From Escherichia phage vB_EcoM_KAW1E185, in the sequence record NC_054922.1: 64,000 nt of DNA; one strand, given 5' to 3'. Below the pieces are notes generated by a model, which saw only the letters and a list, made by a program, of their open reading frames with translations, searched no databases and was not told the origin of the DNA. A program made the position numbers and the translations under genes. Shown here piece by piece: positions 6,140 through 63,989 of this stretch. Numbering within the stretch: position 1 is the stretch's first letter; every line of letters begins with the position of its first letter.

Positions 6140-6206
6140 GTTATCGAGTTGGTGCCATTATATACATCATTTTCTGATTGTGTTTTGTGTGCTTTCAAAA
6201 TGAAGA

Positions 6207-6224
6207 AAGGGGCCGAAGCCCCTT
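6207..6224 (-). terminator. C(UUCG)G hairpin downstream of hoc on minus strand
   Basis: Minus-strand AGGGGC-UUCG-GCCCCU stem-loop followed by T-rich tract. Confidence 0.5.
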
Positions 6225-6228
6225 ATGA

Positions 6229-7359
6229 TTATGGATAGGTATAGATGATACCAGTTTCTAAAGCAGTTTTATGAATGATGTATCCATTACGCGATTCTTG
6301 GACATCAACTTCTGGATAGTCTTTCATCATCTTCTGAAGAGTGTAACGATGCAGGTAGTATTTACTATCTGGATCTTCAGTTTTCCAATCTTTACCTTCT
6401 TCAGTCATTTTTTGGATTTCATCCATAACCCACCAACCGCACCAGATGTAAGCTGAGCTACGGTGTGGAAGAGGATGAACATAAGGTAATTCACCTTCTG
6501 GTTCTGGAGCAACTTTATCAGTTACCTGAACTTGACCTTCCGCCGTAATAGTTTTGCTATCATAATCAGCAGCAGTAACAGTTGCAGTAACTTCAATAGT
6601 TTGACTTCCAATAGATGAGGTATCAACTGTATATACATTAGTTGATCCTTCTACAGGAGAAGAATCTTTCTTCCATGAATACGCAATTTGCGCTTCTTCT
6701 GGAGCATCAGTGACATTAGCAGTAAATGTAGCCGAAGCATCTTGTTGAACGTTAATAGAAGGAGGAGTCAATGTAACCTGTGGATTCATTGTCTTCTTAT
6801 TAACTGTTAATGATACTTCATTCGAAGTAACTTCCTTTTCATTGTAATTTTCAGCAGTTACTTGAGCTACGCATTTAATTCTTTTTACTCCACTTGTAGT
6901 TGGAGTATAGTTAAATGTAGAGTTAGTTTCTCCACCAACTTGTGAATCATCTACATACCACTGATACGTAGCAGATGCTCCATCAGGTTGAGAAGCTAAG
7001 GCAGCGGTAAATTCAACAGCTGTTCCAATCACTCCAGCAGCAGGACTATCAGGAGTTACTGCCAAGGTAGTTGTCTGTGTCTTATTTTGAACTGTGATAG
7101 TTGTTGTCGCTTCAGCCGTTTCCGGGCCTCCTTCAGAAAGTGTATTTGTTGCAACTACTTTAATAGTCTTTTGACCGGCAGGTCCTTTTAGTACATAACT
7201 AAAAGTTGCTTCAGCTCCATCTTGTGGAGCATCATCTACAGTCCAAGCATAGGTAATAGTTCCGCCTCCAGTTTCACCACTGGGTGTAGCAGTAAACTGC
7301 TGAGTCTGATCTATAACTCCAGTAGGTGTTTTAGGAGTTATATCAACTGTAAAAGCCAT
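6229..7359 (-). CDS. hoc: Highly immunogenic outer capsid protein Hoc (Ig-like domains)
   Basis: 376-aa Thr/Val-rich ORF with repeated Ig-like segments; T4 Hoc length and position. Confidence 0.85.
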   Translation of the reverse strand: MAFTVDITPKTPTGVIDQTQQFTATPSGETGGGTITYAWTVDDAPQDGAEATFSYVLKGPAGQKTIKVVATNTLSEGGPETAEATTTITVQNKTQTTTLAVTPDSPAAGVIGTAVEFTAALASQPDGASATYQWYVDDSQVGGETNSTFNYTPTTSGVKRIKCVAQVTAENYNEKEVTSNEVSLTVNKKTMNPQVTLTPPSINVQQDASATFTANVTDAPEEAQIAYSWKKDSSPVEGSTNVYTVDTSSIGSQTIEVTATVTAADYDSKTITAEGQVQVTDKVAPEPEGELPYVHPLPHRSSAYIWCGWWVMDEIQKMTEEGKDWKTEDPDSKYYLHRYTLQKMMKDYPEVDVQESRNGYIIHKTALETGIIYTYP

Positions 7360-18456: not shown

Positions 18457-18487
18457 TTTGTGTTCCTCATGTTATGTAAGTAAAATT

Positions 18488-18517
18488 ATTATAACACAAC
18501 ACGAGGGACTTGTAAAC
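18488..18517 (-). promoter_or_regulatory. Sigma70-type early promoter (-35 GTTTAC, 17-nt spacer, -10 TATAAT)
   Basis: Minus strand GTTTAC-aagtccctcgtgttgtg-TTATAAT; the 23-mer including the -35 and spacer is identical to one at 32212-32234. Confidence 0.5.
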
Positions 18518-24228: not shown

Positions 24229-24539
24229 TAGAACCTCATCTGAAAGCCATGCGATTTAACATTACCGCCGCCAATATCAGAAATATTAATTTCACGCGCA
24301 ATTGAAGGGTCAATGTCAATTTCACGATTGAGTTTAGTGATAGCTAAAGTATCGCGCCCATTTACAGTACGGAACTTTAAAGGACATACTACATTAACGT
24401 AGTTTTTAATCGATTCACTAGTAGGTTGCAAATGAGCAGGAAGGTCTTTAGGCGCCTTAGAGAAAACTACTTCGCAGAAGTTTTTACGAGTATCAAAATA
24501 AGTAGTCATAAACATAGTATTTTCCTCAGTAAGGGCCAA
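24228..24539 (-). CDS. Hypothetical protein, T4 30.5-like
   Basis: 103-aa ORF. Confidence 0.5.
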   Translation of the reverse strand: MALTEENTMFMTTYFDTRKNFCEVVFSKAPKDLPAHLQPTSESIKNYVNVVCPLKFRTVNGRDTLAITKLNREIDIDPSIAREINISDIGGGNVKSHGFQMRF

Positions 24540-24555
24540 AGCCCCTCATTTTATT

Positions 24556-32173: not shown

Positions 32174-32203
32174 CATAAAGTCCTCATGTTATGTCAGTAA
32201 GAC

Positions 32204-32234
32204 TACTGTAACACAACACGAGGGACTTGTAAAC
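32204..32234 (-). promoter_or_regulatory. Early promoter upstream of alc (-35 GTTTAC with spacer identical to the 18495-18517 copy)
   Basis: 23-mer cacaacacgagggacttgtaaac identical to 18495-18517; weaker -10 (TACAGT). Confidence 0.4.
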
Positions 32235-40911: not shown

Positions 40912-41154
40912 TCAAACAGACTTTTTCACAGTTTTCCAATCAGCTTTAAACTGATCAACATCAGAATGGTAAATCCAGAATCCTGCGCTTTCTCCATCCT
41001 CATAAAGAGGGCATCCATCGCATTCATCTTCCCATCCCATATCACGCAAAAGACGTTCAGCTTTTTCAACGAGTTCAGAATCTTTACCGATGATATTAAA
41101 ATACCATTTACCTCTAACTTCTGAATCTTTGATGCTCTGGCGTTGTAATCTCAT
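40912..41154 (-). CDS. Hypothetical protein, T4 frd.3-like
   Basis: 80-aa ORF with CDGC motif. Confidence 0.5.
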   Translation of the reverse strand: MRLQRQSIKDSEVRGKWYFNIIGKDSELVEKAERLLRDMGWEDECDGCPLYEDGESAGFWIYHSDVDQFKADWKTVKKSV

Positions 41155-41208
41155 TTTATTCTCCTTAGTTGATAGGGTAATAGTATCACACTACTACCCT
41201 TCTGTAAA

Positions 41209-41574
41209 CTACTTTTTGAAAGTTTTTCGCAAAAGTTCAATGATTTCATCTACATTGTTTTCGTCAACAATGCAGTGAATTTTTGTTACGCCATAAACCT
41301 CGTCTTTGACTTCATCTTCTTCAGAAGTCGGTTCTTTATACTCACGAAAACAATGAAATTCATCTTCGCAGACGTTGAAGTAAAAATGCTTTCCATTGGC
41401 GCATTCTACGTGTTTTACTACTTTAAATCCATCAGCAAAGAAAACTTCTTTAACTTCAAACCATCCGCCATTTTCTTGAATAGCTTTAACTATTAATGAA
41501 TTAGAACGCGGGCGATAATTAATAAATGTATCAATAAGTCTTGGAACAAGTTCGTACTTTTTATCAATATACAT
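41209..41574 (-). CDS. Hypothetical protein
   Basis: 121-aa ORF. Confidence 0.45.
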   Translation of the reverse strand: MYIDKKYELVPRLIDTFINYRPRSNSLIVKAIQENGGWFEVKEVFFADGFKVVKHVECANGKHFYFNVCEDEFHCFREYKEPTSEEDEVKDEVYGVTKIHCIVDENNVDEIIELLRKTFKK

Positions 41575-41870: not shown

Positions 41871-41890
41871 CAGCAGTATTGCCGATAGTT

Positions 41891-41922
41891 GTATAGTACC
41901 ACAGTATGCTTTGGTTGTAAAC
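41891..41922 (-). promoter_or_regulatory. Sigma70-type early promoter (-35 GTTTAC, -10 TACTATAC) with A/T-rich upstream element
   Basis: Minus strand aaaaatttttttttcacagaacgGTTTAC-aaccaaagcatactgtgg-TACTATAC; near-identical copy at 58475-58506. Confidence 0.5.
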
Positions 41923-41956
41923 CGTTCTGTGAAAAAAAAATTTTTGAAATAAAAAA

Positions 41957-41975
41957 GGGGACCTCTAGGGTCCCC
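41957..41975 (-). terminator. Rho-independent terminator after gene 32
   Basis: Minus-strand GGGGACC...GGUCCCC hairpin followed by UUUUUUAUUU. Confidence 0.6.
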
Positions 41976-41997: not shown

Positions 41998-42906
41998 TTA
42001 AAGGTCATTCAAAAGGTCATCCAGGTCCGTGTCATCAGCACTAGATGAACTGCCAGAGCTTGAGCTCATAAAATCATCTTCAGTTTTTGTTTTGAAGTCA
42101 TCAACATTGAATGCATCCAAATCATCAGCAACTTTATCGGCTTTCTTAGCAGCAGTTGCTGCGGCACCACCCATAGCAGCAGTTCCCATAACTTGACTGA
42201 ACTTAGTGCTCAGTTCTTCAAACGATTTGAATTTATCTTTAGAAGTCATTTCAGAAAGGTCAACCATTTGTTCGAACAGTTCTTTCTGGAAAGATTCATC
42301 ATCAATGTTTGGAATCGCAGATTGATTCAGGAATTTAGATTCGTCGTAGTTACTAAATCCAGAAACTTGTTTAACTTTCAGTACAAAGTTAGCACCTTCC
42401 CACGGACAAGTTACATCAACTGGAGTTTCACCCATTTCAACATCAACCGCAATCATTGCATTGATTTTATCCCAGATTTTCTTACCGAAACGGTATTTAA
42501 ATACTTTACCTTCGTTTTCTGGAGCAGCTGGGTCTTTTACTACAAGAATGTTAGCCCAGTAAGAAGTTTTACGTTTAACAAGACTGTACTCTTTATTGTC
42601 AGTGTTGTACAGATCATTTTTACTAATGTATTGACATACTGGGCAAGAATCGTAATCACCGTGGGTAGATGAACAGTTTTCAATATACCATTTACCATTT
42701 TTCTTGAAACCGTGATTTACAAGAATTGCGAATGGTGCTTGTTCATCATTTTTAGACGGAAGAAAACGAATTACTGCTTGACCGTTACCCGCATTGTCGA
42801 GTTTCAGTTTCCACTCGCCTTTATCTTCAGAAGAAAAACCACCTTTATTTCCAGCCAGTTTAGCCATTTGTGCAGCGAGTTCAGCAGTAGATTTACGTTT
42901 AAACAT
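41998..42906 (-). CDS. 32: Single-stranded DNA-binding protein gp32
   Basis: 302-aa ORF recognised as T4 gp32, including the acidic Ser/Asp-rich C-terminal tail. Confidence 0.95.
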
Positions 42907-45196: not shown

Positions 45197-45307
<111 letters not shown>

Positions 45308-45373
45308 CAAGCAGAAGACGGCATACGAGATCGATCGGTGTCTCGTGGGCTCGGAGATGTGTATAAGAGACAG
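45308..45373. other. Illumina Nextera i7 index adapter: P7 (CAAGCAGAAGACGGCATACGAGAT), 8-nt index CGATCGGT, GTCTCGTGGGCTCGG, mosaic end AGATGTGTATAAGAGACAG
   Basis: Exact match to the canonical Nextera index-2 primer architecture, recognised from memory; not phage sequence. Confidence 0.95.
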
Positions 45374-45428
45374 ATTATATACCATCCGAATCTTAAAGTA
45401 AACAAGTATAAATACTTATTATTGAAAA
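45374..45428. repeat. 55-bp direct repeat, copy 2 (native rnh-34 intergenic sequence)
   Basis: Identical to 45197-45251; continues into the gene 34 ribosome-binding site. Confidence 0.95.
45407..45414 (+). promoter_or_regulatory. T4-type late promoter TATAAATA for gene 34
   Basis: TATAAATA 35 nt upstream of the gene 34 ATG; duplicated at 45230-45237 within the artefactual repeat. Confidence 0.55.
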
Positions 45429-45448: not shown

Positions 45449-48400
45449 ATGGCCGAGATTAAAAGAAAGTTCAGAGCAGAAGATGGTCTGGACGCAGGTG
45501 GCGATAAAATAATCAACGTAGCTTTAGCTGATCGTGCCGTAGGAACTGACGGTGTTAACGTTGATTACCTAATTCAAGAAAACACAGTTCAACAATACGA
45601 TCCAACTCGTGGATATTTAAAAGATTTTGTAATCATTTATGATAACCGCTTTTGGGCTGCTATAAATGATATTCCAAAACCGGCAGGAGCTTTTAATAGC
45701 GGACGCTGGAGAGCATTACGTACCGATGCTAACTGGATTACAGTCTCATCTGGTTCATATCAATTAAAATCCGGTGAAGCTATTTCGGTTAACACTGCAG
45801 CTGGTAATGATATTACATTTACTTTACCATCTACCCCAATTGGCGGTGATACTATCGTTCTCCAAGATATTGGAGGAAAACCTGGAGTTAACCAAGTTTT
45901 AATTGTAGCTCCAGTGCAAAGTATTGTAAACTTTAGAGGCGAACAAGTACGTTCAGTACTAATGACTCATCCAAAGTCGCAGTTAGTTTTAATTTTTAGT
46001 AATCGTCTGTGGCAAATGTATGTAGCTGATTATAGTAGAGAAGCTGTAGTTGTAACACCAGCGAATACTTATCAAGCGCAATCTAATGATTTTATCGTAC
46101 GTAGATTTACTTCTGCTGCACCGATAAATATTAAACTTCCGAGATTTGCTAATCACGGCGATATTATTAATTTCGTCGATTTAGATAAACTAAATCCGCT
46201 TTATCATACAATTGTTACTACATACGATGAAACGACATCAGTACAAGAAGATGGAACTCATTCCATTGAAGGCCGTACATCTATTGATGGTTTCTTGATG
46301 TATGATGATAATGAGAAATTATGGAGATTATTTGACGGGGATAGTAAAGCACGTTTACGCATTATAACAACCAATTCTAATATTCGTCCAAATGAAGAAG
46401 TTATGGTATTTGGTGCGAATAATGGAACAACCCAAACAATTGAACTTCAGCTTCCAACTAATATTTCTGTTGGTGATACTGTCAAAATTTCCATGAATTA
46501 CATGCGAAAAGGACAAACAGTTAAAATCAAAGCTGCCGGTGAAGATAAAATTGCTTCTTCAGTTCAATTGCTGCAGTTCCCAAAACGTTCAGAGTATCCA
46601 CCTGAAGCTGAATGGGTAACTGTTCAAGAATTAGTTTTTAACGGTGAAACTAATTATGTTCCAGTTTTACAACTTGCTTATATAGAAGATTCTGATGGAA
46701 AATACTGGGTTGTACAACAAAACGTTCCAACCGTAGAAAGAGTAGACTCTTTGAATGATTCTACTAGAGCAAGATTAGGCGTAATTGCTTTAGCTACACA
46801 AGCTCAAGCTAATGCCGATTTAGAAAATTCTCCACAAAAAGAATTAGCAATTACTCCAGAAACATTAGCTAACCGTACTGCTACAGAAACTCGTAGAGGT
46901 ATCGCAAGAATAGCAACTACTGCTCAAGTAAACCAGGATACTACATTCTCTTTTGCTGACGATATTATCATCACTCCTAAAAAGCTGAATGAAAGAACTG
47001 CTACAGAAACTCGCAGAGGTGTTGCTGAAATTGCTACGCAACAGGAAACTAATGCAGGTACTGATGATACTACAATCATCACTCCTAAAAAGCTTCAAGC
47101 TCGTCAGGGTTCTGAATCATTATCTGGTATTGTAACCTTTGTATCTACCGCAGGAGCTACTCCAGCTTCTAGTCGTGAATTAAATGGTACAAACGTTTAT
47201 AATAAAAACACTAATAATTTAGTTGTTTCGCCTAAAGCTCTGGATCAGTATAAAGCTACTCCAACACAACAAGGTGCAGTAATTTTAGCAGTTGAAAGCG
47301 AAGTAATTGCTGGACAAAGCCAAGAAGGATGGGCAAATGCGGTTGTAACGCCAGAAACGTTACATAAAAAGACATCAACTGATGGAAGAATTGGTTTAAT
47401 TGAAATTGCTACACAAAGTGAAGTTAATACAGGAACTGATTATACTCGTGCAGTCACTCCTAAAACTTTAAATGACCGTAAAGCAACTGAAAGTTTAAGT
47501 GGTATAGCTGAAATTGCTACACAAGTTGAATTCGACGCAGGCGTCGACGATACTCGTATCTCTACACCATTAAAAATTAAAACTAGATTTAATAGTACTG
47601 ATCGTACTTCTGTTGTTGCTCTATCTGGATTAGTTGAATCAGGAACTCTCTGGGACCATTATACCCTTAATATTCTTGAAGCAAATGAGACACAGCGTGG
47701 TACACTTCGTGTAGCTACACAAGTTGAAGCTGCTGCAGGAACATTAGATAATGTTTTAATAACTCCTAAAAAGCTTTTAGGTACTAAATCTACTGAAGCA
47801 CAGGAAGGTGTTATTAAAGTTGCAACCCAGTCTGAAACTGTGACTGGAACGTCAGCAAATACTGCTGTATCTCCAAAAAATTTAAAATGGATTGTGCAGA
47901 GTGAACCTACTTGGGCAGCTACTACTGCGATAAGAGGCTTTGTTAAAACTTCATCTGGTTCAATTACATTCGTTGGTAATGATACAGTTGGTTCAACACA
48001 GTCGTTAGAATTATACGAGAAAAATAGCTATGCAGTATCACCATATGAATTAAACCGTGTATTAGCAAATTATTTGCCATTAAAAGCAAAGGCTGCTGAT
48101 ACAAATTTATTGGATGGTCTAGATTCATCCCAGTTCATTCGTAGGGATATTGCACAGACAGTTAATGGTTCACTAACCTTAACCCAACAAACGAATCTGA
48201 GTGCCCCTCTTGTATCATCTAGTACTGCTACGTTTGGCGGATCAGTTTCGGCAAACAGCACATTAACTATTTCTAATACTGGAACGGCAACTCGTCTGAT
48301 TTTTGAGAAAGGACCTCAAACTGGAACTAACCCAGTGCAGACGATGACTATCAGAGTTTGGGGAAATCAGTTCGGTGGCGGTTCAGATACAACACGTTCT

Positions 48401-54100: not shown

Positions 54101-54451
54101 ATACAAGCCGGCATACCCAATAACATATTCTATGACGGATATAATAGTGTAGGTGCAAACGCCAACGCTAAATTCACTGGAACCGTGAACGGTGCTACTG
54201 TAGGGTCGAATATAGCCAAAACTTCTTCAGACGGTGCTCATACTCATACTTGGTCTGGTACTACAAGCACTACAGGTAACCATGCTCACACAGTAGGTAT
54301 TGGTGCTCATACCCATACTGTAGGTATCGGTGCTCATACCCACACGGTAGCAATTGGCTCGCATGGTCATACTATCACTGTAAATAGTACAGGTAATACA
54401 GAAAACACGGTTAAAAACATTGCTTTTAACTATATCGTTCGTTTAGCATAA
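51179..54451 (+). CDS. 37: Long tail fibre distal subunit / receptor-binding protein gp37
   Basis: 1090-aa ORF; N-terminal part gp36-like, C-terminal tip with repeated His-x-His boxes ([16 protein letters not shown]...) as in T4-type gp37; longer than the 1026 aa I recall for T4. Confidence 0.9.
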
Positions 54452-57799: not shown

Positions 57800-58435
57800 T
57801 CACAGTTCAGATGCTACAGTGATTACTGCTTCAATGTTTTCTGCCGAGCGTTTAATGTCAAGATACACATTACCGTTTTTAGCGATTTTACATGACATTC
57901 CGATGTCAGTAAATTTCTGAATATGATGTTCCATCATTTTATATCCAAAAATTCGCATATTTCCATTGTTGTTAATTTCAAAATTACGAATTCCGTGAGT
58001 GCGTTTTTCTAAAATAGCGAGATAGTTACTGCGGTAAGTTTCAACCTTTTTAAGAACAAATCCATTTTCATCTAAAAGTTTTAACATGAGGTCTTTATCT
58101 TCTTCCATATCAGAAGTAATCTCGCGAGCTTTACGAGTTGCTCGTTTTTTCAGCAGTTCCGGAGCATTTTCCTGTGCGTATAAAGTTGCTGCGTTTGAAA
58201 TAATATCCTGAGCTTCACCTGTAATGATTAATCCATCACCAGATTTCTCCACCAGGCCTTTTTTAATCAATACCCCAATATTACTATTAACTACTGCGTT
58301 ACCTAAATCTGGATGCACCTCACGAACTTCTGCAGCTGTAATGAAATCTTTCTTAGCAATAGTAATTAAAATCGCAGCAGTTTTTTCATTCAGAACATCG
58401 TTAGAAGCTTTGATGATGTAAGTTACTTTAGACAT
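57800..58435 (-). CDS. motA: MotA middle-transcription activator
   Basis: 211-aa ORF recognised as T4 MotA. Confidence 0.9.
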   Translation of the reverse strand: MSKVTYIIKASNDVLNEKTAAILITIAKKDFITAAEVREVHPDLGNAVVNSNIGVLIKKGLVEKSGDGLIITGEAQDIISNAATLYAQENAPELLKKRATRKAREITSDMEEDKDLMLKLLDENGFVLKKVETYRSNYLAILEKRTHGIRNFEINNNGNMRIFGYKMMEHHIQKFTDIGMSCKIAKNGNVYLDIKRSAENIEAVITVASEL

Positions 58436-58474
58436 TTTCTAATCTCCGTAATTCTGTATCAGTAGTTGATAGTT

Positions 58475-58506
58475 GTATAGTACCACAGTATGCTTTGGTT
58501 GTAAAC
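58475..58506 (-). promoter_or_regulatory. Sigma70-type early promoter for motA (-35 GTTTAC, -10 TACTATAC)
   Basis: Near-identical to the cassette at 41891-41922; A/T-rich upstream element and terminator hairpin upstream. Confidence 0.5.
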
Positions 58507-58537
58507 CGTTTTATGAAAAAATTTTTGAAATAAAAAA

Positions 58538-58557
58538 GGGAGAGCCGAGGCTCTCCC
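58538..58557 (-). terminator. Rho-independent terminator downstream of the motA.1-like ORF
   Basis: Minus-strand GGGAGAGC...GCUCUCCC hairpin followed by a U-run. Confidence 0.55.
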
Positions 58558-58562
58558 TAAAA

Positions 58563-61489: not shown

Positions 61490-61724
61490 AATAAGCGTTT
61501 AACATATCAATCATTAAAACGATTGGGAATATACTCAAAACTATTAGTATTATAACTACATTCCATATAGCTTTAACAATCTTTTTCATTTTCTGTTCCT
61601 CCGTAGTTGATAGGGTAATAGTACCACGGAAGAACAGTCCTGTAAACAACTTTTTTAAAAATATTCGTAATAAATGTGAATACCAACTACTACTGCTGAA
61701 ACTTGCGCAACCCACCATGCACAA
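61476..61724 (-). CDS. Hypothetical small membrane protein (true start probably internal at MKKIVKAIW)
   Basis: 82-aa track ORF; the N-terminal part overlaps a promoter-like cassette, so a roughly 37-aa product is more likely. Confidence 0.3.
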   Translation of the reverse strand: MCMVGCASFSSSSWYSHLLRIFLKKLFTGLFFRGTITLSTTEEQKMKKIVKAIWNVVIILIVLSIFPIVLMIDMLNAYFGFM

Positions 61725-61832: not shown

Positions 61833-62108
61833 TCATAGTTCAATCTCAGCGATTTTCATTTCATTACTATTAATAGCCGCTTTAAGACTATCTGAAAGAA
61901 TTACATTCCAATGGTCATTCATATGACCATTAACTAAACGTGTAATTTCTTCGGGAGTTGAAAAATAAGGCGTATCAGACTCCCAATGCGATAGTCCCAA
62001 GCGAGTATAAATCATACCTTCATCATCGCTAGAATATTCAACTGACACAAACTCATCAGTTATTTTATGTTTAGCGTAATAAAATTTAAATTTCATTTTA
62101 TTCTCCAA
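61833..62108 (-). CDS. Hypothetical protein (ndd-denB interval)
   Basis: 91-aa ORF immediately downstream of an early promoter. Confidence 0.45.
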   Translation of the reverse strand: MENKMKFKFYYAKHKITDEFVSVEYSSDDEGMIYTRLGLSHWESDTPYFSTPEEITRLVNGHMNDHWNVILSDSLKAAINSNEMKIAEIEL

Positions 62109-62131
62109 ATCCGTATCAGTAGTTGATAGTT

Positions 62132-62163
62132 GTATAATACCACGGTCCTTGTGGTATGTAAAC
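62132..62163 (-). promoter_or_regulatory. Sigma70-type early promoter (-35 GTTTAC, -10 TATTATAC)
   Basis: Diverged third copy of the 41891/58475 promoter cassette. Confidence 0.45.
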
Positions 62164-62179
62164 CGTTTTGTGAAAATTT

Positions 62180-62737
62180 TTAAATGGAAAGATACCAGCC
62201 GTTGTAGTTGCTTTTTCTTACAACCTTACGAAGGTCTTCTCTATCACCAATGAACTTCGGAGTGTACTGGATGACACCTGGATGAATTTCTTTAGTGTTG
62301 AATATAATTATACAGTCCGCGACTTGATGATTTAGAATGGGCCCTAGATTTATTCCAGAACCATATGGATACTCTCCGCTGCATCCCGTTGTTACCGAAA
62401 TCCAACGCGAGTCAGTTTGATGTGTCTTAACTTCTACACGGAGCCCACAGTATTTTGGATGTGCTAAAACATCCCATGCATACGTGTACGGATCATCGAC
62501 ATTTTCTTGGCCTTTATTGACATATCCGCTTAGCCAATCTGCCACAAAAAACTCTGCGTACACAGCGATACGGCATCTTTCGATAACTTCTGCCTTATCC
62601 TGATTTGGATTTTGTTTTAAAGAGTATCTTGCTGTATCAGCAATTTTGACCTTCATTTCACTAGTCAAGTCACTGTTCGATAGGGTAAATGTCGGAATCT
62701 GAAATAGTCTCTGTAAACCCGGATTCGTTTTCTGCAT
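62180..62737 (-). CDS. denB: Endonuclease IV
   Basis: 185-aa ORF; T4 DenB length and position next to rIIB. Confidence 0.85.
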   Translation of the reverse strand: MQKTNPGLQRLFQIPTFTLSNSDLTSEMKVKIADTARYSLKQNPNQDKAEVIERCRIAVYAEFFVADWLSGYVNKGQENVDDPYTYAWDVLAHPKYCGLRVEVKTHQTDSRWISVTTGCSGEYPYGSGINLGPILNHQVADCIIIFNTKEIHPGVIQYTPKFIGDREDLRKVVRKSNYNGWYLSI

Positions 62738-62823
62738 TAAACTTTCCTTTTACGTCGGAATCACTGATATTCATACAATAAATCATAGTTTCCCTTAAAA
62801 CAAAAGGGCCGAAGCCCCTTATT

Positions 62824-63018
62824 TTATTTGAATTGTGCAATTCTTTTTTCTAAACACTCTGCGTAAGATTTCATTGAGATGAACTGTGAAAGTAGAAGTT
62901 CTTGCTCAACTGCACTAACTGTTAGAAACTTTGCGCTTTCTAAAAATTTGCTCAGTGCATTAATTTTGAGCATTAATTGATCGTATTCTTCTTTTACTCG
63001 TGCTTGATAACCTAACAT
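62824..63018 (-). CDS. Hypothetical protein, T4 denB.1-like
   Basis: 64-aa ORF. Confidence 0.45.
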   Translation of the reverse strand: MLGYQARVKEEYDQLMLKINALSKFLESAKFLTVSAVEQELLLSQFISMKSYAECLEKRIAQFK

Positions 63019-63035
63019 AATTTTCCTTAATATGA

Positions 63036-63053
63036 TAAGGGCCGAAGCCCTTA
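63036..63053 (-). promoter_or_regulatory. Intercistronic C(UUCG)G stem-loop overlapping the rIIB stop codon
   Basis: Minus-strand UAAGGGC-UUCG-GCCCUUA, 7-bp stem; no U-run follows. Confidence 0.45.
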
Positions 63054-63989
63054 TTTAAATTGTTCAGTAACGTCTTCAACTACTTCGTATTGGCAGGTAC
63101 GCATTTTAGCATCGTTGTAATCAATCGGAATTGATACTACATCACGCGGATGTACTTTAACTTTTACAACTCGGCTAGTTGAACTGCCAAAGTGACGAAT
63201 ATAAGATTTAGAACACACATGCAGACCACGAGAACAAGTTTGTGTATCATCGTCATTCACACGAGTACGTGGCATTTTAACTACTTTACCAGGACTGTTA
63301 TCAAAGGTATTTGAGTGACAGTCAAAGTAATTACTACGAACTACTTTCCAAGCATAGAAGTAACCATCTTCTGTAATTTCAATATCGTTTGCTACCAAGA
63401 AATCAAAGAGTCGAGATACCGCTTTCTGGCTTGGGTTTTCCAGCAGATTTTCCAAGAACGGAAAATAAAATTCAAAGTTTTCACCTTTTTCCATCGAATC
63501 AAGAATACGATCAACCAGACCAGACCGTAATTCGATATTTTGATAGAACAAGCTTCCGCCTTCAATTCGAACATCACCGGAAATATATTTTTCAACAGCG
63601 CGACGAACGTTAATTTTTTGCGCTGCTTCTTCCAATTTATCTGCAACAAGCAGATTAAGAATTTCTTGGAAGTTTGAATGAGTATTAGGAGTTGCGTTAT
63701 AAGTTACGCCATCAACAGTAATTGAAATGAATTTTTTAGATGCATTCCAAATAATGTCAGATTTAGCAACTGGAGCAATAACTGCATCGCTATTAACTTT
63801 AATTGTAATATCACCGCTAATAGTAACTTTGGAGCGCTCAGCTTCTTCAGCATTTTTCAAAACACGACGGATTGTGTCCACCGATACACCTTGCCAATCA
63901 GCCAATTCCTGTTGGGTGTAATTACCACTTGAATACAGTTTGACAATTTCAGCTTGTTCGTTTTTGGTCAGGCATTTAATATTGTACAT
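63051..63989 (-). CDS. rIIB: rIIB membrane-associated protein
   Basis: 312-aa ORF recognised as T4 rIIB; the rIIA 3' end would lie beyond the window. Confidence 0.9.
   Translation of the reverse strand: MYNIKCLTKNEQAEIVKLYSSGNYTQQELADWQGVSVDTIRRVLKNAEEAERSKVTISGDITIKVNSDAVIAPVAKSDIIWNASKKFISITVDGVTYNATPNTHSNFQEILNLLVADKLEEAAQKINVRRAVEKYISGDVRIEGGSLFYQNIELRSGLVDRILDSMEKGENFEFYFPFLENLLENPSQKAVSRLFDFLVANDIEITEDGYFYAWKVVRSNYFDCHSNTFDNSPGKVVKMPRTRVNDDDTQTCSRGLHVCSKSYIRHFGSSTSRVVKVKVHPRDVVSIPIDYNDAKMRTCQYEVVEDVTEQFK

Follow-up and report, generated by a model that had tools for sequence, protein, structure and literature searches.

Genomic setting and promoter architecture

The window, i.e. the whole stretch of 64,000 nucleotides that was analysed, displays 96-99% identity to many Tequatrovirus genomes and its colinear counterpart on the T4 map is the final ~64 kb, with rIIB at the end. 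The T4 gene order is kept (32/frd.3, motA.1/motA, denB), and the window can be assigned to a Tequatrovirus (T4-like phage), of which it represents the 64 kb next to rIIB. Three related cassettes are located in this region. The first one (c1) lies between the stop codon of gene 32 (41998-42000) and the ATG of frd.3 (41849). The second one (c2) lies between the motA.1 stop (58563) and the motA ATG (58435), directly upstream of motA as originally reported; the first 15 codons of MotA (45 nt) are identical to those of T4. The UP tract of the third one (c3) overlaps the denB stop (62180-62182), and the cassette precedes an 87-aa ORF (ATG at 62096) that other records annotate as RB14ncORF269c or RB69ORF270c-like. 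The c1-c2 interval of ~16.5-16.6 kb contains genes 32, 59, 33, dsbA, rnh, 34-38, t, asiA, arn and motA. The minus strand encodes the genes that surround the repeats, and the plus-strand text quoted in the initial annotation must consequently be reverse-complemented to obtain the functional strand. The features are as follows.

41884..41975, minus strand: cassette c1, with the gene 32 terminator, UP tract, early promoter and conserved start region
41957..41975, minus strand: gene 32 intrinsic terminator, GGGGACC-CTAGA-GGTCCCC followed by UUUUUUAUUU; 7 pairs, 6 of them GC; -14.3 kcal/mol
41893..41922, minus strand: core promoter of c1, GTTTAC (41922-41917), 18-nt AACCAAAGCATACTGTGG with TGn, TACTAT (41898-41893)
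58468..58558, minus strand: cassette c2, with the motA.1 terminator, UP tract and motA early promoter
58537..58558, minus strand: motA.1 intrinsic terminator, AGGGAGAGC-CUCG-GCUCUCCCU followed by UUUUUAUUU; 9 pairs; -21.1 kcal/mol, z -5.5
58477..58506, minus strand: core promoter of c2 (motA), GTTTAC, the same 18-nt spacer as in c1, TACTAT
62113..62186, minus strand: cassette c3, with UP tract, early promoter and leader with GGAG Shine-Dalgarno, without terminator hairpin
62134..62163, minus strand: core promoter of c3, GTTTAC, spacer ATACCACAAGGACCGTGG, TATTAT; ortholog present in 13/13 phages compared
41161..41236, minus strand: family member c4, early promoter in the frd.1/frd.2 region
61599..61675, minus strand: family member c5, early promoter in the ndd.x small-ORF region, orthologue of T4 P166.8

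Each copy displays, in sense-strand order, an A/T-rich tract, GTTTAC, 18 nt ending in TGG, TA(C/T)TAT and ACAACTATC. A consensus scan located TTTACA-17-TACTAT/TATTAT, with TG before the second hexamer, at 41921-41893, 58505-58477 and 62162-62134, and the -35 GTTTAC(A) is found in all three copies as well as at 10 further sites. The -35 GTTTAC, the -10 and the A/T upstream tract expected of early-promoter cassettes are therefore all present as initially described, together with the extended -10 TGn, the 17-bp sigma-70 spacing and a -10 of the TAnnAT form. The UP-element-like tract located 5' of each -35, a putative alpha-CTD site, reads CAAAAATTTTTTCA(C/T)A(A/G)AACG in c1 and c2 and TTTAAAAATTTTCACAAAACG in c3. 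All three promoters are co-oriented with an early gene and located 5' of it (frd.3, motA and the first ORF after denB, respectively). T4 early promoters have been described with GTTTAC at -36 to -31 together with a UP-like A tract and an extended -10 rich in GT (PMC1524935), and have been termed 'uber' UP/-35/TGn/-10 promoters with additional consensus regions (PMC2988021).

T4 early promoters (Pe) occupy the same loci, in the same orientation and between the same flanking genes, at ~146.85 kb (frd.3), 163.64 kb (motA) and 167.06 kb (after denB), the last being the ortholog of the c3 core. As the GenBank and RefSeq records of T4 contain no promoter features, the T4 promoter names and coordinates given here do not originate from annotation. 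The UP tract, GTTTAC, 17-bp sigma-70 spacing, TGn, TAnnAT and ACAACTATC start region are shared. At motA, T4 and the window are identical from GTTTAC through the leader to the ATG; they differ at 2 positions of the UP tract, and the terminator loop is inverted. The third promoter is followed by ndd.6 in T4 and by the 87-aa ORF in the window. Judged by sequence, the three sites are T4-class early promoters, orthologous to those of T4. Their activity is predicted, and transcription starts placed from the T4 consensus would lie near 41886 in c1, near 58470 in c2 and near 62127 in c3. Unmodified host sigma-70 RNA polymerase would recognise these promoters immediately after infection by means of four stacked elements (A/T-rich UP tract, -35 GTTTAC(A), extended -10 TGn and -10 TAnnAT) and would drive the transcription of frd.3, motA and the first small ORF after denB.

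The three loci of the initial annotation are real sites and represent an undercount. The pattern GTTTAC-N16-18-TANNAT has 13 matches in the window, all on the minus strand, for 0.84 expected. A family profile built from nine members retrieves 10 clear members, again all on the minus strand, and a repeat search of the window adds two family members at 41153-41227 and 61591-61665. At least 10 T4-class early promoters can be recognised in the window on this basis. Two early-promoter and leader segments located 13.7 kb apart, 18464-18517 and 32181-32234, are 91% identical over 54 nt; the 32.2-kb member of this pair is also recovered by the family profile.

MotA is an early product, and the Shine-Dalgarno of its mRNA is cut by RegB (PMC2988021), whose strong cleavage consensus is GGAGRAYARAA (PMC3014915). 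GGAG occurs in the motA leader of the window (58439-58451, minus strand), where GGAGATTAGAA shows one mismatch to the RegB cleavage consensus. The leader of the ORF following c3 (62100-62112, minus strand) contains GGAGAATAAAA, a perfect match to the strong consensus.

Extent of the repeats and adjoining terminators

Global and local alignments of 41884-41959 with 58468-58540 yield 71 identical columns out of 76, in agreement with the near-exact recurrence initially reported, and the differences consist of 2 mismatches and one 3-nt indel within an A-run. The boundaries of the local alignment coincide to the base with those first given, and the likeness stops at both ends. The longest uninterrupted identity is an exact run of 43 nt, which is the longest genuine exact direct repeat of the 64-kb window once an adapter artefact is removed. 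Over 30 dinucleotide-preserving shuffles the longest exact repeat averaged 16.2 nt and never exceeded 18 nt, and the length of the c1/c2 repeat is far above this chance level. The alignments also confirm that 62113-62170 (c3) is a diverged third copy. Its similarity to c2 spans 58433-58531 and 62094-62185, and the likeness of c3 consequently extends into the transcribed 5' leader. The spacer, initially described as conserved, is so in c1 and c2 (18/18), but c3 matches at only 9/18 positions. A scan of the whole window at Rfam gathering thresholds returned 0 matches, so that no known RNA family accounts for the repeats.

The artefact is an Illumina Nextera adapter read-through located between rnh and gene 34 (45197-45428), in which the insert (45252-45373) reads CTGTCTCTTATACACATCT-CCGAGCCCACGAGAC-ACCGATCG-ATCTCGTATGCCGTCTTCTGCTTG followed by ~60 A; around this insert, the rnh-upstream early promoter is perfectly duplicated over 55 nt. 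This insert belongs to the assembly of the source record and is not biology. Repeats of another nature, in-frame coding units both tandem and dispersed, are found in the long-tail-fibre genes at 54281-54361 and 46791-47775 (a 27-nt CAT-rich unit present three times, and others of 25-33 nt).

A terminator hairpin had been assigned just upstream of every copy. This holds for c1 (-14.3 kcal/mol) and c2 (-21.1 kcal/mol), where a G/C-rich hairpin followed by a U-tract stands at the end of the upstream gene; the c2 hairpin can also be written GGGAGAGC-CUCG-GCUCUCCC plus U-tract, with arms GGGAGAGC...GCTCTCCC. It does not hold for c3, as folding of its upstream region, the 3' end of denB, gave no hairpin (-2.7 kcal/mol, z 0.1). 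Both the c1 and c2 hairpins are annotated as terminators in orthologous records, that of gene 32 in Lutter, G10400 and wV7, and conservation of a terminator after gene 32 among T4-like phages has been described (PMC1524935). The stems of c1 and c2 differ in sequence, and the repeat accordingly stops at the CCC forming the base of each stem. Since the terminator U-tract continues directly into the UP tract in c1 and c2, the terminator of the upstream gene abuts the promoter and the two would form one insulated terminator-promoter unit.

Both hairpins (41957-41975 and 58538-58557) also occur in sister phages as exact reverse-complement 'flip' alleles (GGGGACCCTAGAGGTCCCC versus GGGGACCTCTAGGGTCCCC and GGGAGAGCCTCGGCTCTCCC versus GGGAGAGCCGAGGCTCTCCC, respectively), in which the loop is inverted inside a palindromic stem. 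Elsewhere in the window, a hairpin of the GGGCC-GAAG-CCCC type with A/T flanks is present in four copies (6193-6232, 24516-24555, 62789-62828 and 63022-63061) and probably represents a recurring intrinsic-terminator motif.

Spacer alleles at the frd.3 promoter

A base-by-base comparison was performed on 13 genomes only, namely the window and 12 phages (T4, T2, RB14, RB18, teqdroes, Ozark, PinkRuby, teqskov, UFV-AREG1, PST, G10400 and wV7), in all of which the three promoters are orthologous (13/13). The motA spacer AACCAAAGCATACTGTGG is found in 11/13 phages, and those of PinkRuby and wV7 are hybrids whose 3' half resembles the spacers of other promoters. At the frd.3 promoter, three unrelated spacer alleles differing at about half their positions are embedded in near-identical flanks. 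Allele (a), ATCCTTGTCCTTCCATGG, is carried by teqdroes, Ozark, T2, PST, G10400 and wV7, with a variant in RB18. Allele (b), the motA sequence, is carried by the window, PinkRuby, teqskov and RB14, and by UFV-AREG1 with one mismatch. Allele (c), AAGCATAAAGCTTTATGG, is that of T4 and is identical to the motA-type spacer of the window at 9/18 positions. The mean pairwise diversity of the frd.3 spacer reaches 0.33 (ungapped) versus ~0.01-0.03 in most flanking 18-nt bins.

The near-identity of c1 and c2 is very probably explained by the long consensus of T4-class early promoters combined with a lineage-specific conversion of the frd.3 spacer by that of motA. The first source of likeness would be the unusually long class consensus, extending from about -60 to +10. 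The second one would be the replacement, in the lineage of the window, of the 18-nt spacer of the frd.3 promoter by the motA spacer, through a short ectopic gene-conversion tract templated by the identical promoter blocks on either side; this swap would have given rise to the exact run of 43 nt. The frd.3 and motA promoters of T4 are identical over 30/30 nt upstream of the -35 and match at only 9/18 positions in the spacer, which suggests that the 43-nt run of the window is a derived state. On both sides of the patch the two promoters were already identical, a configuration that appears to be the signature of ectopic gene conversion, and we infer both this mechanism and its direction from sequence comparison.

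A purely functional origin, in which convergence or constraint on very strong promoters keeps the copies alike without any exchange, would agree with a class consensus that is both long and strongly conserved (PMC2988021, PMC1524935) and with the 30 upstream nucleotides shared by the two T4 promoters. It is nevertheless very unlikely, as the spacer behaves as unconstrained sequence: its median pairwise identity is 39% over 66 promoter pairs of the window, where 100% is attained only by c1/c2 and by the artefact pair, and 6/18 in T4. Sister phages moreover use three unrelated spacers at the same frd.3 promoter, and selection on the spacer does not predict an 18/18 match between paralogues within near-identical flanks.

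The distribution of the motA-type allele was also surveyed in sequence databases. A query of 75 nt, in which the motA-type spacer continues into the frd.3 leader, is matched at a coverage of at least 80% in about 146 of 495 related records, and at 100% identity over at least 97% of its length in 9 records representing 8 phages (PinkRuby, teqskov, vb_GEC_SH_GT, T-01, R5505, bov9_1, bov10K1 and EH2). When IMG/VR was scanned with an exact pattern of the context of the frd.3 promoter, 3 loci only were retrieved, all of the non-motA spacer type and too few to be informative. The independent records carrying the identical allele lead to the rejection of a collapsed repeat, i.e. of a c1/c2 identity produced by mis-assembly, which is extremely improbable even though the source assembly does contain the obvious adapter read-through insertion at 45252-45373.

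The motA-type frd.3 allele occurs on several flanking haplotypes, which could reflect recurrent conversion or the spreading of a single event by recombination between phages. A spacer resembling allele (a) is also present at the imm.1 promoter, downstream of gene 43; because of this near-copy, the motA-type allele could instead represent the ancestral state at frd.3 and have been lost elsewhere by overwriting. Homogenisation of whole cassettes was considered as well and dropped, as the C/T site of the UP tract, compared by eye in the 13 phages, is concordant in 7 of them for ~6 expected.

Cassettes as recombination substrates

The initial annotation had proposed that the same-strand copies act as substrates for homologous recombination. 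On the sequence evidence the copies appear to recombine, and the sole outcome seen is non-reciprocal: the proposal stands as far as the transfer of a short patch (the motA-type spacer at frd.3) is concerned, and no crossover is shown. The deletion or duplication of the intervening 16.5 kb, also proposed, is unsupported. Several genes of the c1-c2 interval, which includes 32, 33, 34-38, asiA and motA, are essential in T4, and headful packaging in T4 provides a terminal redundancy of ~3% only. Neither the deletion nor a 16.5-kb duplication, which exceeds the headful slack, should consequently give viable phage; such products could arise in the replicating pool and would not be propagated. Synthetic junctions were constructed in order to search 50,697 phage records at a coverage of at least 80%. 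The deletion-type junction (motA.1-terminator/promoter/frd.3) was found in 0 of 501 matching records and the duplication-type junction (gene-32-terminator/promoter/motA) in 0 of 674. Such crossovers are thus quite unlikely to account for the repeats, notwithstanding a near-identity of 43-76 nt in direct orientation, the short homology patches that suffice for T4 recombination according to Singer et al. 1982 as cited in PMC2839356, and the ORFs deleted or inserted by recombination between promoter/stem-loop cassettes in RB49 and phi1 (PMC2839356).

The latter cassettes, designated PeSLs (promoter-early stem-loops), serve as recombination linkers in RB49 and phi1 (Arbiol et al. 2010, PMC2839356). 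They resemble the present copies in combining a strong early promoter with a G/C stem-loop terminator and an upstream tract rich in A and T, and in forming dispersed conserved cassettes of ~100 bp for which a role in recombination and ORF shuffling has been proposed and partly shown. The PeSL -35 is the sigma-70 consensus TTGACA, whereas every copy in the window has the T-even type (G)TTTAC(A), and the cassettes are not classed as PeSLs since this defining -35 is absent. The stem-loop, often polyG...polyC in PeSLs, precedes the UP tract in c1 and c2 and is missing in c3. A hyperplastic or ORFan-boundary setting applies to c3, weakly to c1 and not to c2 (motA), c1 and c2 being located in conserved gene contexts. 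By analogy, c1 and c2 may work like the PeSL subclass that carries its stem-loop upstream of the AT-rich tract.

The promoter, leader and Shine-Dalgarno located downstream of denB (62096-62186) are conserved in the 13 phages and lead to three different first ORFs at the ATG: MKFKFYYAKH... in the window and 6 other phages, MKIAEIEL* in T4 and RB18, and MFTTAELK... in T2, RB14, UFV-AREG1 and PST. These alternative ORFs are best read as modular ORF replacement at the cassette.

That the cassettes as a whole are mobile PeSL-like modules, moving together with their downstream ORF (via mini-circles, for example), would suit both this association of c3 with several ORFs and the pairing of a G/C-rich stem-loop with an early promoter in c1 and c2, as in one PeSL subclass (PMC2839356). 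Such mobility is unlikely, as c1 and c2 stand between conserved genes, at the same place in 13/13 phages, and the GTTTAC promoters of T-even phages are regarded as analogues, not homologues, of PeSLs (Arbiol et al., PMC2839356). Comparable cases are the promoter-associated repeats of T-even internal-protein loci (Repoila et al. 1994) and the repeat-mediated deletions of T4 (Mosig et al. 1998), both as reported in PMC2839356, where T4-type early-promoter or stem-loop repeats constitute recombination sites in plastic regions. As summarised there, these are nearby repeats around dispensable ORFs, whereas c1 and c2 are separated by 16.6 kb that include essential genes, and the outcome detected would be a conversion patch the size of a spacer.

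In T4, the spacer of P27.05 (imm.1) is identical at 17/18 positions to that of P166.8 (166.78 kb), and its 30-nt leader is identical at 30/30 positions to that of P167.06 (167.06 kb), both of these promoters being ~140 kb away. The imm.1 early promoter of T4 can be described as a mosaic from this comparison, and the exchange of segments between promoters appears to be general.

The promoters and adjoining terminators are already known, textbook features of T4, and their rediscovery changes little. The movement of a spacer between distant promoters with fixed flanks is a side result of modest value, a small extra that could merit a systematic survey. Documentation of promoter segment exchange in T-even phages was not found in the literature searched; cassette recombination in T-even phages had been noted earlier as an analogous phenomenon (Repoila 1994 and Mosig 1998, as cited in PMC2839356). 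The natural spacer-swap alleles would provide a tool for studying the tuning effect of the spacer on very strong sigma-70 promoters, or on the stimulation of these promoters by Alt. With about even confidence, we propose that the dispersed early promoters of Tequatrovirus constitute a mosaic family in which conversion tracts repeatedly swap UP, spacer and leader blocks. Such exchanges may span promoters located tens of kilobases apart, and examples may include the motA spacer at frd.3, the hybrid motA spacers of PinkRuby and wV7, and the T4 imm.1 promoter. The cassettes of this family may also act as linkers when ORFs are replaced, the promoter downstream of denB being a possible instance, and this would extend the notion of regulatory cassettes as recombination linkers from RB49-type to T-even phages.
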